Of a stretch of 64,000 bases of DNA, positions 33,918 to 61,855 are shown piece after piece; positions within the stretch are counted from its first letter, which is position 1, and each line of letters begins with the position of its first letter. The translations under genes and the position numbers were made by a program. The DNA lies in the NCBI GenBank assembly GCA_944383915.1, contig CALWRJ010000010.1, positions 73,178 to 137,177 on the forward strand, given 5' to 3'. This DNA is from an uncultured Clostridia bacterium. Its GTDB lineage: Bacteria; Bacillota; Clostridia; Christensenellales; UBA1242. The notes below the pieces were generated by a model. The model worked only from the letters and a program-made list of their open reading frames with translations, was not told where the DNA came from and did not search any database.

Positions 33918-34053
33918 AACTTTTCACCGAAATAATTATATCACTTTTTAATATCTATTTCAAGAGTAAAGGACAAATTTGGTTTTAAGAGATTTTGGTA
34001 TGAAAGTCTGTTGCTATATTGTGTTTTTTAAATCTTAAAAAATAGTTATGCTT

Positions 34054-34223
34054 GTAATAAGAGATAGGGCATATGTAATAAGAGATAGGGCGTGTGCAAG
34101 AAAAGATAGAGTATTTGTATAATAAGAGATAGTATTTGTAATAAAGAGATAGAGTATTTGTAATAAGAGATAGAGCATCTGTAATAGGAGACAGGGCATT
34201 TGTTAATGAGAGATGGGGCGCGT
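34054..34223. repeat. tandem array, 8 x ~21 bp (consensus GTAATAAGAGATAGRGCATNT)
   Basis: Units read directly at 34054, 34075, 34096, 34117, 34138, 34160, 34181 and 34202. Edge units are more diverged. Confidence 0.85.
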
Positions 34224-34291
34224 GTAATTAAATAAAAAATATGTAATTATGTAGATAAGAGTTGAATTAATAAATTTTTTATCATAATAAA

Positions 34292-45682: not shown

Positions 45683-45690
45683 AATTAATA

Positions 45691-46306
45691 AATTAGCAAT
45701 TAGCAATGAGCAATTAGCAGTTGTTGTGCGCGTGCGCGCAAGCCTTTACGCTTCGCCGTTCGGCTACGCGTAAATTAGGAATTAAAAATTAAATTAATTT
45801 TTATCATATTATGCAAAAATTTTTGCAAGTAGCAAAATCTTTTTGCAAGATAAAATTCCGCTACGCGCGGTGCGGCGGGGGTAGAGCCCCCGCTGGCTCA
45901 TTACGCCTTCGGCGAGTACTTTATCGCTATGCTCAAATTTTGAATTTTGAATTATGGCTGGAATACCTAGTTATAATATTTTAAGTAATAACTCCTTAAC
46001 TGCTAATTGCTAATTGCTAATTCTCGCAAAGCGAGTAAGACTGCTAATTGCTAATTGCTAATTCTCGCAAAGCGAGTAAGACTGCTAATTGCTAATTGCC
46101 TTTACGCTTCGCCGTTCGGCTTCGCTTAATTTTGAATTTTGAATTTTGAATTTTGAATTAAGGCTGGAATTATTTAAATATAATATAATTTTATACTCAG
46201 CAATAACTGCTAATTGCTAATTGCTAATTGCTAATTTGCGCTACGCGCATAGGCTTGCGCGCACGCGCCCCGTAATTCCTAATTACTAATTCCTAATTTC
46301 TAATTA
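45691..46306. repeat. mosaic repeat island B (heptamer arrays, triloop hairpins, GC-rich modules, AT-rich cores)
   Basis: Read directly. (AATTAGC)4 at 45691; GC module at 45721-45770; 16-bp palindrome tgcaaaaatttttgca at 45812; three-hairpin module at 45855-45935; (GAATTTT)n at 45936 and 46128; (GCTAATT)n at 46000, 46043, 46084 and 46208; 41-bp tandem units at 46023 and 46064; (TAATTNC)5 at 46273. Confidence 0.9.
45938..45999. repeat. right arm of the 62-bp perfect inverted repeat
   Basis: Exact reverse complement of 43256-43317. Confidence 0.85.
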
Positions 46307-46330
46307 ATTTTTAGTGATAACTTTTTTATT

Positions 46331-49373: not shown

Positions 49374-49374
49374 T

Positions 49375-49909
49375 TTGCATAGCACTATGCTTTAGTGCTA
49401 TGCAAAAATTAGCAATTAGCAATTAGCAATTAGCAGTTAAGGAGTTATTTCTTAAAATATTTATAATCTAATAAATTTCAGCCTTGATTCAAAATTACAA
49501 GAAAAATACGAGTTTTTATATGCATAGTACCTAAAATTTGTGGTTTTATGCATTATTTTTAGTGCATAGTACTATAAAATTTTGAACTTGTGTTCAAAAT
49601 TTAATTAGCAATTAGCAGTCTTACTTGCTACGCAAGAATTAGCAATTAGCAATTAGCAGTCTTACTTGCTACGCAAGAATTAGCAATTAGCAATTAGCAG
49701 TTATTGTGCGCGTGCGCGCAAGCCTATGCGCTTCGCTTAATTTTTGCCTTGGAGTATGCAATGCACACGGAAAGCCAGCCAATAGTTAGAGTAATTGTTA
49801 AAGTGAGTGGCTCACGGCTGAATTTTGAATTTTGAATTACGGAGTTATTTCCAAAAGTCATCTTATATTTAGAAATACCTTCCTTAACTGCTAATTGCTA
49901 ATTGCTAAT
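49375..49909. repeat. mosaic repeat island C
   Basis: 11-bp-stem palindrome ttgcatagcac/gtgctatgcaa at 49375; (AATTAGC)n; TGCATAGTAC motifs at 49520 and 49562; palindrome aaattttgaac/gttcaaaattt; two 41-bp tandem units with CTTGC-TAC-GCAAG hairpins at 49623 and 49664; GC module at 49703; (GAATTTT)n at 49820; (GCTAATT)3 at 49888. Confidence 0.9.
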
Positions 49910-49974
49910 TTGTAAAAGGTTGCTTTAATTTTTATTTTATGCTAAAATTGAATAAAAATTACAAAGGATAAAGT

Positions 49975-56873: not shown

Positions 56874-59800
56874 ATGTTTTCAACATTAGGTGCTGATGCA
56901 GTAAATGCAATTGTTAACTTTATAGGAGACCTCTTAGGAAGTTTAACTTTTGACCAATTATTTTATATTTTTGTCGGTATTATTGCTGGCATTATCTTAA
57001 TTAGCGGTATTCGTCTTATTTGGTGTTATGAAAACCGCGCTATTAGGGCGATGCGAAGCGTCAACAAGTATTTAAAGAACAATCCAAAAGTTACCGATGA
57101 TAATTTAGTTGAGTTCCATAGTAAGATGAAACAACTTCCGCGCCGTATGCGTGACCGTTGGCAACTTTTTATGCTTGAGCGCGAAGGGAGTCCTAGTAGG
57201 TATATGACTGTTGAATACTGTGTTAAGCGTCCCTTATATAACAGTGCAGTTTTGATGAGCCAAAAACAAGTTTGGTATTTATCTATAATTTTGGCAATTT
57301 TAGGCTTTATTTTTGGGCTTTCAAACATTTCAATTAATGGACTAGGGGCTGACCTTGCGGGGATTTTACTTAACTCATTTGTTATCCCTGCCATTGTGCT
57401 AATTTTAGGTAGTATCTATGTAATGATTTTGCAAATTAGATACAACGCAATCAACCACGACTTTTACGATATGTTTACAAACTTTGTCCGCAATATCGAC
57501 AAAGCCACAAACACGATGCCAGATTATGTAGACTACGAACTCCTATTTACCAAAAAAGAAATCAACAAAGGTATTCCTGTTTTGCGTGAGTACCTAGAAA
57601 AGCGCGCTATGGAGGAGCAAAGACTTCTTGAAAAAGCAAAAAGGGAAGAGGTTAACCACAGCCCGTACGACTTTTCAAGTCTTGGCGTAAACGGTGCGCA
57701 ACTTATTGAACGCGCGGTAAACGAGAGTGAGCAATTCTTGACGCACAAAATTCAACTTCAAAATGAAATTAATGACCTCGAAAAGCAAGTGCAAAAGTCT
57801 GATGCCAATATGGAGGACATCGAGCGCGAGGCAAACAAGAAATTGCAGGCAATTAAGGAAAACCTCGAAAGACTTGATAAGGCTATGAACGAAACTACAA
57901 ACCGTGTAGAAATTAGTTATAACCGCCGTCAAGCATCTGCCGAGATGGACAAAAAACTAATGCTAGAAAAAGACCTCGAGAATATGTTAAACAAGGAAAA
58001 AGTTGCGCAAGATGCCCTAAAAGTTGAGATTCAAAAGCGCAAAGAGGAAATCGAGGAAAACAAAAAAGAAGTCGAGGAAGCGCTCAAATCGGAGTACGAT
58101 ACTTTTGCTACCAAAGTTTATGACGAGTTAAACGAGAAAATTACGCGCGATAACTCGGAGCAGTTGCACGAAATGGAAATGACTATCGCGCGCTTAAAGG
58201 CGAAGGTAAAAGAGTTTACTCGCGATATCGAAAAGAAAGATTCTCTAATTGAGGCGCGAAACCTTGAACTTGACAATATGCGCCAGCAAGTTAGCAAGCA
58301 AAAAGGAAAATCGAAGTCCAAAAAAGACTTTGGGCAAGATTATATAAAGGCGCAAGACAATGTGCCAGAAGGGACTATTAATGCGGTGCAAGTCGACTAC
58401 AACGACACCGTTCCGCAAGAAAATCAAGTGGCTGAAATTCAAAATGCTGAAAACTATGCGCAACCTAACGAGCAGTACGATTCTAGCATTTATCAGCCGA
58501 CTGAACCGCAGTACGATGTGCCACCACAAGACAATCAGCCCGACTATGCAGGGTATGACCAATATAATCAGCCTTATGACAATTCGCAATACAACGGCGA
58601 GTACACAGAAGGCGCTCCATATAATTATGACGGGCAACAATATGCGGAAAATGGCGAGCCGTATAATTACGAAATGCCACAGGGTGACGCTCAACCTGTT
58701 GAAAATGGTGAGCAAAATGGTGAAAATGGCGATTTAAATAGCGGACAGGGCGAGTTGCAACCTGAAAATGCGCAAAACTTTGACAATCAAAACGCAAATT
58801 ACGATGCGCAAAACTATGATGTAAATGGCTATTACGACCAAAACAATGTTGATTATAACAATCAATATGGACAGCCTTACCAAGACGCGCAAAATTATTA
58901 CGCACCGACTGACCAAACTGGAGAGCAGGGCGGAATTTATATGCCCGAGGACACAACCGATTTCAGCGTTGCGGAAAATCAAGCAAATGACGGACAACAG
59001 TACGCAGAAAATGGCGAAAATGCGCCTGTGGAAAATGTTGCGTCACAAGAAAATATCGAAGGTGTGCCTGCTGATAATGTTGCGCCACAAAATGTTGGTG
59101 ACGCAAACGGCGAGCAACCTGTTGAATTAACTCCTGAAAGCGCTCAACAACAAGCGGGAAGTGATGAACTTGTCGTAAGTGACGAAAATGTTAGCCTAGA
59201 CAATTCGGCTAACGCAAATACTGACACTGTAAATCTCGACAGCGACACCATTTCTCTTGACGAAGCGCCCGTTTCATTGGACGAGCAATCACCTGTTTCT
59301 CTTGATGAAAAGGCAAATAAAGAAAACGAGAGCGAAACAATTTCGCTTGACGAAAGCGCTACTGAACCTAAAAATGAAGCAAAAGAGAGCGAGCAAGCCG
59401 AAGTTAGTCTTGACGAAAAGAAAGACAGTGACGAGATAAAACCAGCAAAGAAAACGACTGCTAAAAAGTTTACTGACGGTAAGTCTAAATCTAGCGACAC
59501 TGAAAGCGAGAAAAAAGACGAGAAAGCAGACAAAGACGAGAAGGGAAGCGTTAAGGACGACAAAGCCGAAAAAGACGATTCTTTAAACGATGACGACAAA
59601 GGCAAAAAGGCAGATAAGGATGCCGACAAGCAAGAGCCAAAAGAGAGTAAGAAAAAATATGTAGAAAATGACGATTTGGAGGCTTTGCAGAAAAAGATTG
59701 AGGAGGAAAACGCTAGATTAAAGAAACAGCAAGAGGAGTTGCGCGCTCAAATTGATAAGACTTTGGCAACTATGGAAAAAGCCGAAAACGCGACTAAAGC

Positions 59801-59966
59801 CGAACGCACTCGTAATATTAAGAAAATTAAAGAAATGATTGCAAAACTTAAAGAGGAGGCGGAAACAGCAAAGGCGCGCGGAGCAAGCAAGACTCAAATT
59901 AATAAAATTAATAAGTCCGCTGCCGAACTTTTGAAAGTCCTAGCAGACTATCAATCTAAAAAATAG
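56874..59966 (+). CDS. large membrane-anchored coiled-coil protein with Q/N/Y/D-rich and (V/I)SLDE-repeat low-complexity regions
   Basis: GGGAG RBS. 4-5 N-terminal TM helices, ~300-aa coiled coil, prion-like Q/N/Y segment, seven [VI]-[SN]-L-D repeats, K/D/E tail. Confidence 0.6.
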   Translation: MFSTLGADAVNAIVNFIGDLLGSLTFDQLFYIFVGIIAGIILISGIRLIWCYENRAIRAMRSVNKYLKNNPKVTDDNLVEFHSKMKQLPRRMRDRWQLFMLEREGSPSRYMTVEYCVKRPLYNSAVLMSQKQVWYLSIILAILGFIFGLSNISINGLGADLAGILLNSFVIPAIVLILGSIYVMILQIRYNAINHDFYDMFTNFVRNIDKATNTMPDYVDYELLFTKKEINKGIPVLREYLEKRAMEEQRLLEKAKREEVNHSPYDFSSLGVNGAQLIERAVNESEQFLTHKIQLQNEINDLEKQVQKSDANMEDIEREANKKLQAIKENLERLDKAMNETTNRVEISYNRRQASAEMDKKLMLEKDLENMLNKEKVAQDALKVEIQKRKEEIEENKKEVEEALKSEYDTFATKVYDELNEKITRDNSEQLHEMEMTIARLKAKVKEFTRDIEKKDSLIEARNLELDNMRQQVSKQKGKSKSKKDFGQDYIKAQDNVPEGTINAVQVDYNDTVPQENQVAEIQNAENYAQPNEQYDSSIYQPTEPQYDVPPQDNQPDYAGYDQYNQPYDNSQYNGEYTEGAPYNYDGQQYAENGEPYNYEMPQGDAQPVENGEQNGENGDLNSGQGELQPENAQNFDNQNANYDAQNYDVNGYYDQNNVDYNNQYGQPYQDAQNYYAPTDQTGEQGGIYMPEDTTDFSVAENQANDGQQYAENGENAPVENVASQENIEGVPADNVAPQNVGDANGEQPVELTPESAQQQAGSDELVVSDENVSLDNSANANTDTVNLDSDTISLDEAPVSLDEQSPVSLDEKANKENESETISLDESATEPKNEAKESEQAEVSLDEKKDSDEIKPAKKTTAKKFTDGKSKSSDTESEKKDEKADKDEKGSVKDDKAEKDDSLNDDDKGKKADKDADKQEPKESKKKYVENDDLEALQKKIEEENARLKKQQEELRAQIDKTLATMEKAENATKAERTRNIKKIKEMIAKLKEEAETAKARGASKTQINKINKSAAELLKVLADYQSKK

Positions 59967-60466: not shown

Positions 60467-61082
60467 ATTAGGAATTAGCAAGCAACTCGCTATGCGAGAA
60501 TTAGCAATTAGCAGGTAGCAATTAGCAGTCTTACTCGCTACGCTCAAATTAGCAATTAGCAATCTTACTTGCTTCGCAAGAATTAGCAATGAGCAATTAG
60601 CAATTAGCAGTTGTTGTGCGCGTGCGCGCAAGCATATGTGCGTAGCGCAATTTTGAATTTTGAATTTTGAATTATTGCAGGAATATCTAATAATTTTTTG
60701 CTCTTTTTAAACCATTTGCAAATTTTAGAACATTTGTTCGTTGGTACAAATAAAGTATTAACTTATAAATTAAGCACATTAAAACCTATGTTAATTAATA
60801 AATTAATTATAGTACTATGAGAGTTTTACTCTCATGATATTTCCTTGATTTTTAGTGGTAGTACTTTTAATTGTTGTTTGTTATAAAGCTATGAGAGTTT
60901 TACTCTCATCGCTATAAGTTAAATTAGGAATTAGTAATTAGGAATTTTGGTCGCTGACGCTCGAATTTTGAATTTTGAATTAGGAATTATGGCTAGAAAA
61001 TATTTAAAAATATTTTTAAATGCTTGCGCGCACGCGCACAACAACTGCTAATTGCTAATTGCTAATTCGCAACGAAGTTGCG
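60467..61082. repeat. mosaic repeat island D, left part
   Basis: Hairpins CTCGC-TAT-GCGAG (60486), CTTGC-TTC-GCAAG (60568) and CGCAAC-GAA-GTTGCG (61068). Also (AATTAGC)n arrays, GC module at 60611-60648, (GAATTTT)n at 60650 and 60964, two copies of ctatgagagttttactctcat at 60816 and 60889, and (GCTAATT)3 at 61046. Confidence 0.9.
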
Positions 61083-61110: not shown

Positions 61111-61209
61111 AAAAACAACCTAAAAACAACCGAAATTCAACCGAAAAACAACCTAAAAACAACCCAAATTCAACCCAAAAACAACCCAAAAACAACCCAA
61201 AAACAACCA
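61111..61209. repeat. tandem array, 9 x 11 nt (AAAWWCAACCN)
   Basis: Units counted base by base: aaaaacaacct, aaaaacaaccg, aaattcaaccg, and so on. Confidence 0.9.
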
Positions 61210-61463
61210 ATTGAAAATGAAATCGTGATCGTAAACGGAAATTCCGAACGATAAAAAAAATAAAAACTTTCTCTCTTTCTATGGCTTGTTGGGTGGCGAT
61301 AAAATGCTAATCTAATATTTATAATAATTTTAAATTTTAGTGGTGATAAAAACTTGTTAAAACAGTTTTAATGGATTTCATTTATATCACTTTTTAGAAA
61401 TATAATTCTAAATTTTTCGTCTATGAATGAATGGCTTTAATATAATCTAAATCACTTACAAAA

Positions 61464-61595
61464 AACCAAGAAAATAACCAAGAATAAAACCAGCAACATA
61501 ACCAGAGAAACAACCAGAGAAACAACCAAGAAAACAACCAGAGAAACAACCAAGAAAACAACCAGAAAAACAACCAGAGAAACAACCAGAAAAAC
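61464..61595. repeat. tandem array, 11 x 12 nt (AACCAGAGAAAC-like)
   Basis: Units counted base by base. Followed by a GGAAA-rich run and a ~60-bp tail shared with the 61111 array. Confidence 0.9.
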
Positions 61596-61740
61596 AACCA
61601 AAGGAAAAGGGAAACGGAAAGGAAAACGGAAACGGAAATTCCGAACGATAAATAAATAAAAACTTTCTCTCTTTCTATGCTTTGCGGTGGGGGAGAATAA
61701 AAAATCTTGTACAACAACATAATTATTACTCGCTACGCTC

Positions 61741-61855
61741 GAATTTTGAATTTTGAATTAGGAATTAAGGCTGAAATTATTAAATATAATATAATTTTAT
61801 ACTCATCCTTAACTGCTAATTGCTACCTGCTAATTGCTAATTCTCGCAAAGCGAG
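61741..61855. repeat. mosaic element copy (GAATTTT array - AAGGCTGAAAT core - GCTAATT array - CTCGC-AAA-GCGAG hairpin)
   Basis: The core aaggctgaaattattaaatataatataattttatactca is nearly identical to 46161-46199. Confidence 0.85.

Follow-up and report, generated by a model that had tools for sequence, protein, structure and literature searches.

A 41-bp tandem repeat in the gene spacers of a Clostridia genome looks like recently expanded repeat DNA built from hairpin-capped heptamer arrays

BOX elements of Streptococcus pneumoniae are modular intergenic repeats with a middle box of ~45 bp that occurs in variable tandem copy number; they are not known to contain heptamer arrays and are probably unrelated in sequence to the family described here. 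The SDR4-6 repeats of Nostoc punctiforme, with units of 21-27 nt, are said in a 2008 study by Elhai et al. to share a hairpin kept by compensatory changes; these repeats are reportedly very small, often situated in tandem heptamer repeats and, it appears, recently expanded. In PF05635 cassettes and 23S rRNA intervening sequences (IVS), inverted arrays of about four heptamers close a long stem, and to our knowledge 13-nt hairpin caps are not part of this layout. REP, BIME and REPIN elements of Enterobacteria and Pseudomonas are small extragenic palindromes arranged in mosaics between genes, preferentially at gene 3' ends, and compensatory changes have been reported in REPIN stems (PMC3116915). 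At the level of the single hairpin, only GNA triloops give rise to an extraordinarily stable DNA mini-hairpin structure, with d(GCGNAGC) melting at 70-76 °C, whereas the single RNA counterpart quoted, r(GCGAAAGC), melts at 39 °C compared to 76.5 °C for the DNA; this motif is defined biophysically and at phage and plasmid origins, not as a dispersed repeat (PMC13037366).

We examined a window of 64,000 nucleotides (the whole stretch of DNA analyzed here, C10:73178-137177) of a 1.18-Mb, 23-contig, ~35% G+C assembly from an uncultured Clostridia bacterium; the proteins nearest to its RF1 come from uncultured Clostridia and Christensenella-labelled MAGs (81% and 73% identity). A first-pass annotation of the window had described 41-bp tandem units with a variable 13-nt hairpin. 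These units are real: Tandem Repeats Finder (TRF) returns two perfect arrays of period 41 and 100% identity, one of 2.5 copies at 45999-46099 and an inverse one of 2.4 copies at 49603-49701 (Table 1). The 41-bp unit is one block, composed of a TAAGAYT linker (7 nt), a short GCTAATT array and a 13-nt capping hairpin. As the tandem units are two blocks of a repeat family found throughout the intergenic spacers of one species, their appearance is that of repeat DNA that expanded recently, not of a conserved RNA gene. Our preferred reading, to which we give a probability of about 0.6, is that the family is a species-private, recently expanded REP/BIME- or SDR-like mosaic of selfish or neutral DNA whose blocks persist only if they can fold. 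All of the hairpins listed in the annotation are present; CTCGC-AAA-GCGAG at 46023, 46064 and 61843, CTCGC-TAT-GCGAG at 60486 and CTTGC-TTC-GCAAG at 60568 lie exactly where they had been placed, but three starts had been set one base low, with CTTGC-TAC-GCAAG beginning on the + strand at 49624 and 49665 and CTCGC-TAC-GCTCA at 60534.

Table 1. Repeat features of the window (positions counted from its first nucleotide).
Feature	Positions	Strand	Basis
Chain 1 (41-bp tandem)	45997-46099	+	sequence reading, TRF
13-nt hairpin CTCGC-AAA-GCGAG; linker TAAGACT at 46036-46042	46023-46035	+	sequence; DNA fold -4.5 kcal/mol
Second identical hairpin CTCGC-AAA-GCGAG; linker TAAGACT at 46077-46083	46064-46076	+	sequence
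Four GCTAATT heptamers and cap hairpin TGCGC-TAC-GCGCA (46237-46249)	46209-46249	+	sequence
Four-heptamer array in opposite orientation (AATTAGC on + strand)	45691-45718	-	sequence, predicted fold
Chain 2, 41-bp block reversed, period 41; hairpins 49624-49636 and 49665-49677	49603-49701	-	sequence, TRF
Chain 3	60486-60608	-	sequence
Three heptamers and cap hairpin CGCAAC-GAA-GTTGCG, 6-bp stem	61047-61082	+	sequence
Four-heptamer array (GCTAATT GCTACCT GCTAATT GCTAATT) and terminal hairpin CTCGC-AAA-GCGAG	61815-61855	+	sequence

The tandem at 46023 is situated inside a 648-nt spacer between a HAD hydrolase gene and a convergent zinc-peptidase gene, and the tandem at 49603-49701 lies upstream of addB. 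Chain 1 is ordered head-AACT, (GCTAATT)3, CTCGCAAAGCGAG, TAAGACT, (GCTAATT)3, CTCGCAAAGCGAG, TAAGACT, (GCTAATT)2. The array at 46209-46249, whose hairpin is followed by a GC-rich 28-nt module (TAGGCTTGCGCGCACGCGC...), forms the 3' arm of a spacer-wide fold-back: in the predicted fold of the whole spacer its heptamers (46209-46236) are paired with the 5' arm at 45691-45718. This predicted fold is far better than those of shuffled sequences (z = -14.4), and the RNA fold of the tandem region is no better than its shuffles (z = -0.1 to -0.4). Both hairpins of chain 2 read CTTGC-GTA-GCAAG on the module strand, with GCGTAGC in each. Chain 3 runs from a hairpin CTCGC-ATA-GCGAG (60486-60498) through four heptamers to TGAGCGTAGCGAG (60534-60546), followed by two heptamers, a hairpin CTTGC-GAA-GCAAG (60568-60580) and four further heptamers. 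The hairpin with a 6-bp stem at 61068 opens a longer GNA-rich multi-hairpin core and is a member of a separate class with 13 loci, and the array at 61815-61855 is located 19 nt past the stop codon of prfA, which is encoded on the other strand. No terminator-like sites, with a G+C-rich stem ahead of a T run, were found in the spacers 45683-46330 and 49374-49974, where the module tails are TAAGAYT, and we therefore rejected the modules as intrinsic terminators. Rfam 15, searched at the gathering score, matched only one tRNA in the 64-kb window; with no Rfam match for the modules, a known RNA family was likewise rejected.

The window harbors other repeats as well. Two C/A-rich tandem arrays, AAAAACAACCC x 8.9 (61111-61208) and AAACAACCAAGA x 11.8 (61460-61601), are each followed by the same ~55-nt segment, AAACGGAAATTCCGAACGATAAA...CTTTCTCTCTTTCTATG (61230-61290 and 61625-61690), a segment that resembles a structured element in duplicate. 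At 34052-34232, ~8 copies of the 21-nt unit TTGTAATAAGAGATAGGGCAT are arranged in tandem with 77% identity; they are unrelated to the heptamer family. A 1030-aa ORF downstream of addA (56874-59966), for which Pfam gave no match, has an internal tandem repeat of 42 nt (59006-59090).

Across the genome there are 203 arrays of at least two exact GCTAATT units and, in a broad catalogue, 139 hairpin modules in 95 chains; the modules are extragenic, just 4 of the 139 falling within crude ORF calls. Five Watson-Crick pairs form in 101 modules, and the others have one G.T (14), one C.A (6), one transversion mismatch (12) or worse (6). The change from C:G to T:A is therefore not always double, as had been claimed from the window, since single-side intermediates exist. 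The stems of the perfect modules are CTCGC (39), CTTGC (21), CACGC (16), CGCGT (16), TGCGC (8) and TTCGC (1), six types that are each fully complementary and are distinguished from one another by two-sided changes at four of five positions. We also assembled a set from flanks only, taking 13-mers preceded by two heptamers and followed by an NWRRAYT tail, which avoids choosing elements by their pairing. This set comprises 92 elements, compared to none when the genome is reversed as a control. Watson-Crick pairs number five in 60 of the elements and four in 13; ~12 are of the TGAGCGNAGCGAR type and ~7 are unrelated. Its alignment has 80.8% paired cells (65.6% in shuffles), 44 cells changed on both sides (17.5 in shuffles) and a covariation score of 0.447, compared to 0.221 in shuffles, with none of 500 shuffles reaching as high; when the partner column was slid by 1-3 positions the score was at most 0.171. 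Because the score exceeds all shuffles, and because paired changes separate the stem types at four of the five positions, hairpin pairing is constrained genome-wide. The copies are, however, paralogues of one genome that belong to a few amplified subfamilies and hence amount to ~5 independent compensatory events, not dozens; for the same reason the constraint could lie on propagation or stem from templated mutation, and it need not reflect a host function.

Neighboring hairpins are separated by 27, 34, 41, 48 or 55 bp, i.e., 20+7n, so the 41-bp period is one among several quantized periods. Many chains are mixed (e.g., CGCGT-GCA / CTCGC-AAA / CACGC-TTT / CTCGC-AAA), and although copies within a locus had been thought identical, only 10 of the 44 adjacent module pairs are, against 2.4 expected by shuffling. 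The other 34 join different types, and general local homogenization was rejected on this ground; of the earlier proposal that selection acts on the structure with local homogenization of the units, the part that holds is that pairing, not sequence, is kept. The 10 identical pairs are more simply explained as recent tandem duplications, and the spatial clustering of identical 13-mers is weak (47 versus 33.7 expected, a value that 86 of 2000 shuffles attain). In 28 of 53 chains the first hairpin comes after a complete array of four heptamers, which is also the modal length of uninterrupted arrays, and 29 further arrays end in a hairpin with no heptamers beyond it. The hairpin therefore caps arrays, and a random insertion of a 20-nt element into them was rejected on the same grounds.

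Chains are depleted from divergent, promoter-only spacers (0.12 per kb, versus 0.44-0.62 elsewhere) and reach 0.62 per kb in convergent ones. Of the 63 chains in spacers between co-directional genes, 43 are antisense to these genes. The antisense chains lie close to the stop codon upstream (median relative position 0.16), the sense chains close to the start codon that follows (0.75), and thus the chains point outward from the center of a fold-back mosaic. The blocks are strung outward from the heads of such mosaics at the 20+7n-bp spacing. Module density peaks at C10:180000-214000, where 40 of the 139 modules lie in 34 kb around dnaA, recF, clpX, clpP and tig, while contigs C13 and C16 carry a single module each and C5, C9, C19 and C20 carry no module.

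The loops, which had been described as varying freely, are restricted: a purine-N-A (R-N-A) loop is found on one strand in 125 of 133 foldable modules (34% expected) and in 38 of the 42 distinct 13-mers. Of the GNA loops, 51 are on the GCTAATT-reading (top) strand and 7 on its complement. The exact mini-hairpin motif GCGNAGC, with its C-G closing pair and GNA loop, occurs in 41 of 139 modules, 34 times on the top and 7 times on the bottom strand, whereas most modules have AAA, TTT or TAT loops or a T-A closing pair. It is 5.5 times denser in spacers than in genes, and within spacers it is found 130 times on the leading and 104 times on the lagging strand (p = 0.10). The copy at 60534, which had been regarded as a single broken one, belongs to a recurrent class of 25 copies, TGAGCGNAGCGAR, all of which contain GCGNAGC; read on the module strand it is TGAGCGTAGCGAG and carries GCGTAGC in a shifted register. 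The flanking 5'-YGAR-3' steps of TGAGCGTAGCGAG could, we presume, form tandem sheared G.A pairs.

In none of the relatives examined did we find the family. Searched with the module pattern, 40 relatives gave 0 matches, compared to 29-73 in the organism's own genome depending on the strictness of the pattern; a covariance model gave 0 in relatives versus 66 in its own genome, and the module had 0 matches in three public collections, which cover genomes, metagenomes and viral contigs. The closest public relative also has a repeat-free spacer downstream of prfA. The congener G003, a sister species, has GCTAATT arrays (55 matches versus 223 here), but no hairpin modules were found in it. It is syntenic around the tandem loci, and its two orthologous spacers are short and empty: the peptidase/HAD spacer is ~60 nt long (L101 7186-7246) and holds a bidirectional terminator, versus 648 nt here, and the addB spacer is ~245 nt long and repeat-free, versus 600 nt here. 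In the spacer 45683-46330 of the present genome this ancestral terminator is gone and the 648-nt mosaic abuts both stop codons. Motifs of the TGCATAGTAC type at 49524-49570 of the window are kept in the sister species (L101 4180-4230), unlike the surrounding mosaic. The sister species also has two PF05635 four-helix-bundle genes, L098 (G003:C23:4124-4435) and L099 (G003:C2:44949-45260), bracketed by inverted arrays of GAATTTT/AATTCAA (the reverse complement of TTGAATT) and AATTAGG/CCTAATT in four-unit blocks. A PF05635 search of the window's genome gave no match, and the heptamer families AATTAGG/CCTAATT and AATTTTG occur in its mosaics.

For a comparison of strains, three ENA contigs align with this genome from end to end: L010 has one mismatch in 4.8 kb, L102 is 99.985% identical over 6.5 kb and L104 is 100% identical over 1.1 kb. 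In L010 and L102, which come from one sample, five chains have the same copy numbers as here; such agreement in near-identical assemblies from other samples counts against our preferred reading. In the tig/clpP spacer, L103 (900-1250, from a third sample) has 2 modules versus 4 here and a different head, but its junctions lie in shared repeats and an assembly chimera is therefore possible, so that L103 may represent either a strain difference, which would speak for the preferred reading, or a chimera. Two other ENA contigs end in arrays or carry a gap inside them. Look-ups of DnaA and RecF for strain comparison gave no matches, and the protein clusters at 90% identity are singletons.

With REP and REPIN elements the family shares its extragenic location, its arrangement in mosaics, its preference for gene 3' sides and its compensatory pairing. 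It differs in that the hairpins are embedded in 7-nt arrays and private to one species, and in that they measure 13 nt, in place of an imperfect palindrome of ~20-40 nt with GTAG 5' of the stem; the left flank of the module is always the heptamer end AATT, and GTAG is found only 3' of CACGC-type stems. A REP/REPIN-RAYT system also requires a RAYT gene flanked by REPs. No intact transposase or RAYT gene was found in the genome, which counts against the preferred reading; the sole PF01797 (Y1 transposase) match, at C7:1772-2101 beside a tRNA gene, has two in-frame TAA stops and no modules around it. A RAYT was therefore rejected, the genome's only Y1 gene being an IS200-type pseudogene that is not flanked by modules. 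The Nostoc SDRs resemble the family in layout and in a hairpin kept by compensatory changes, with a 20-nt unit (13 + 7) between GCTAATT arrays. SDRs are, however, cyanobacterial, whereas the host here is a Clostridia MAG; their heptamer and hairpin sequences probably differ from those of the family, and the hairpin here sits at the end of a complete array as its cap, not within it. The long-stem arms of a PF05635 cassette have their equivalent in the arrays at 45691-45718 and 46209-46236, which close the fold with z = -14.4, but the four-helix-bundle gene between the arms is absent.

The conserved pairing allows for other readings. If the hairpins acted in RNA, for instance in read-through transcripts whose 3' ends they would protect or process as REP does in E. 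coli mRNA, host selection would keep the pairing. This keeps some weight because the chains favor gene 3' sides (0.62 per kb in convergent versus 0.12 in divergent spacers) and the bidirectional terminator that a convergent spacer still holds in the sister species is missing here; the fold of the whole spacer (z = -14.4) and the excess of G.T over C.A intermediates (14 versus 6) also favor it. Yet 43 of the 63 chains in co-directional spacers are antisense, so that the mRNA would carry UNC loops, not GNA, the hairpins, with 5-bp stems and triloops, lack a U tract, and the tandem region folds as RNA no better than its shuffles (z = -0.1 to -0.4). As the chains are also heterogeneous, show no conservation in any relative examined and match no Rfam family, we consider a role in RNA unlikely.

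The stems might also be a mutational by-product kept by no selection at all. Template-switch correction is an established mechanism for quasi-palindromes, and by switching within a strand it would copy a change in one arm to the other; in keeping with this, double changes dominate, single-side intermediates are few, and the mechanism needs only that a DNA hairpin form, which GNA triloops favor. As the whole account we find it similarly doubtful, as it leaves the R-N-A restriction, the 51:7 strand bias of the GNA loops, the fixed position at array ends and the amplification to 139 copies unexplained. Far less probable still is that the palindromes are double-stranded DNA sites for a dimeric regulator or nucleoid protein, with the heptamer arrays as spacers. 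The 13-mers are perfect dyads and module density is highest around dnaA, recF and clpX, but a single sequence-specific protein would hardly recognize six half-sites that differ at four of five positions, the copies of the recurrent TGAGCGNAGCGAR class lack dyad symmetry, and the 20+7n spacings are out of helical phase.

Our preferred reading remains recently expanded repeat DNA, in which we think the hairpins most probably fold as single-stranded DNA, given that DNA mini-hairpins have their optimum in C-GNA-G triloops. As selfish or neutral DNA, the family would have undergone a recent expansion in this lineage, and a block would survive or spread only if its own hairpin can fold. Compensated stems would arise via single-side intermediates that are purged or are corrected by template switching within the hairpin, and identical tandem units such as the 41-bp pair may result from replication slippage or unequal recombination between flanking heptamer arrays. 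Several observations count against this reading. No target-site duplication was found and no movement was observed; hairpins stand at array ends, not at random positions, which makes simple insertion unlikely; and module chains have no leading/lagging bias (47 leading versus 48 lagging), nor do the GCGNAGC motifs of the spacers. Predicted stabilities are modest, including that of the DNA (nearest-neighbor energies of -3.5 to -5.5 kcal/mol for DNA and -3.8 to -6.3 kcal/mol for RNA), AAA, TTT and TAT loops differ from the GNA optimum, and the asymmetry between G.T and C.A intermediates is not significant (p = 0.12). More speculatively, and with low odds in our estimation, the 20-nt hairpin-plus-linker block might be a minimal DNA unit that propagates without a transposase. 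Where a heptamer array ends, a C-GNA-G mini-hairpin would form in the single-stranded DNA and stall or re-prime synthesis, and slipped realignment on neighboring heptamers would then add a block; in this way hairpin-capped chains would grow on arrays whose origin lies in four-helix-bundle (IVS-type) cassettes. If true, this would unite heptamer repeats, REP-like hairpins and DNA mini-hairpin chemistry in one mechanism.

That the loops are confined to R-N-A and that modules carry the exact DNA mini-hairpin motif is a concrete, testable argument for a structural constraint at the level of single-stranded DNA as opposed to RNA: if this is true, the top-strand oligomers d(AATTCTTGCGAAGCAAGTAAG), d(AATTCTCGCAAAGCGAGTAAG) and d(TGAGCGTAGCGAG) should be more stable than their complements or their RNA versions. 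For those who assemble genomes of the host organism there is a practical consequence, as the hairpin blocks break short-read assemblies. The heptamer arrays that bracket four-helix-bundle genes in the sister species link the family to a wider, unexplained excess of heptamer repeats in bacteria. Overall, a dense and very young family in a 1.18-Mb genome, with its compensated-stem subfamilies, its quantized spacing and the empty sites of its sister species, bears on how families of this kind evolve.
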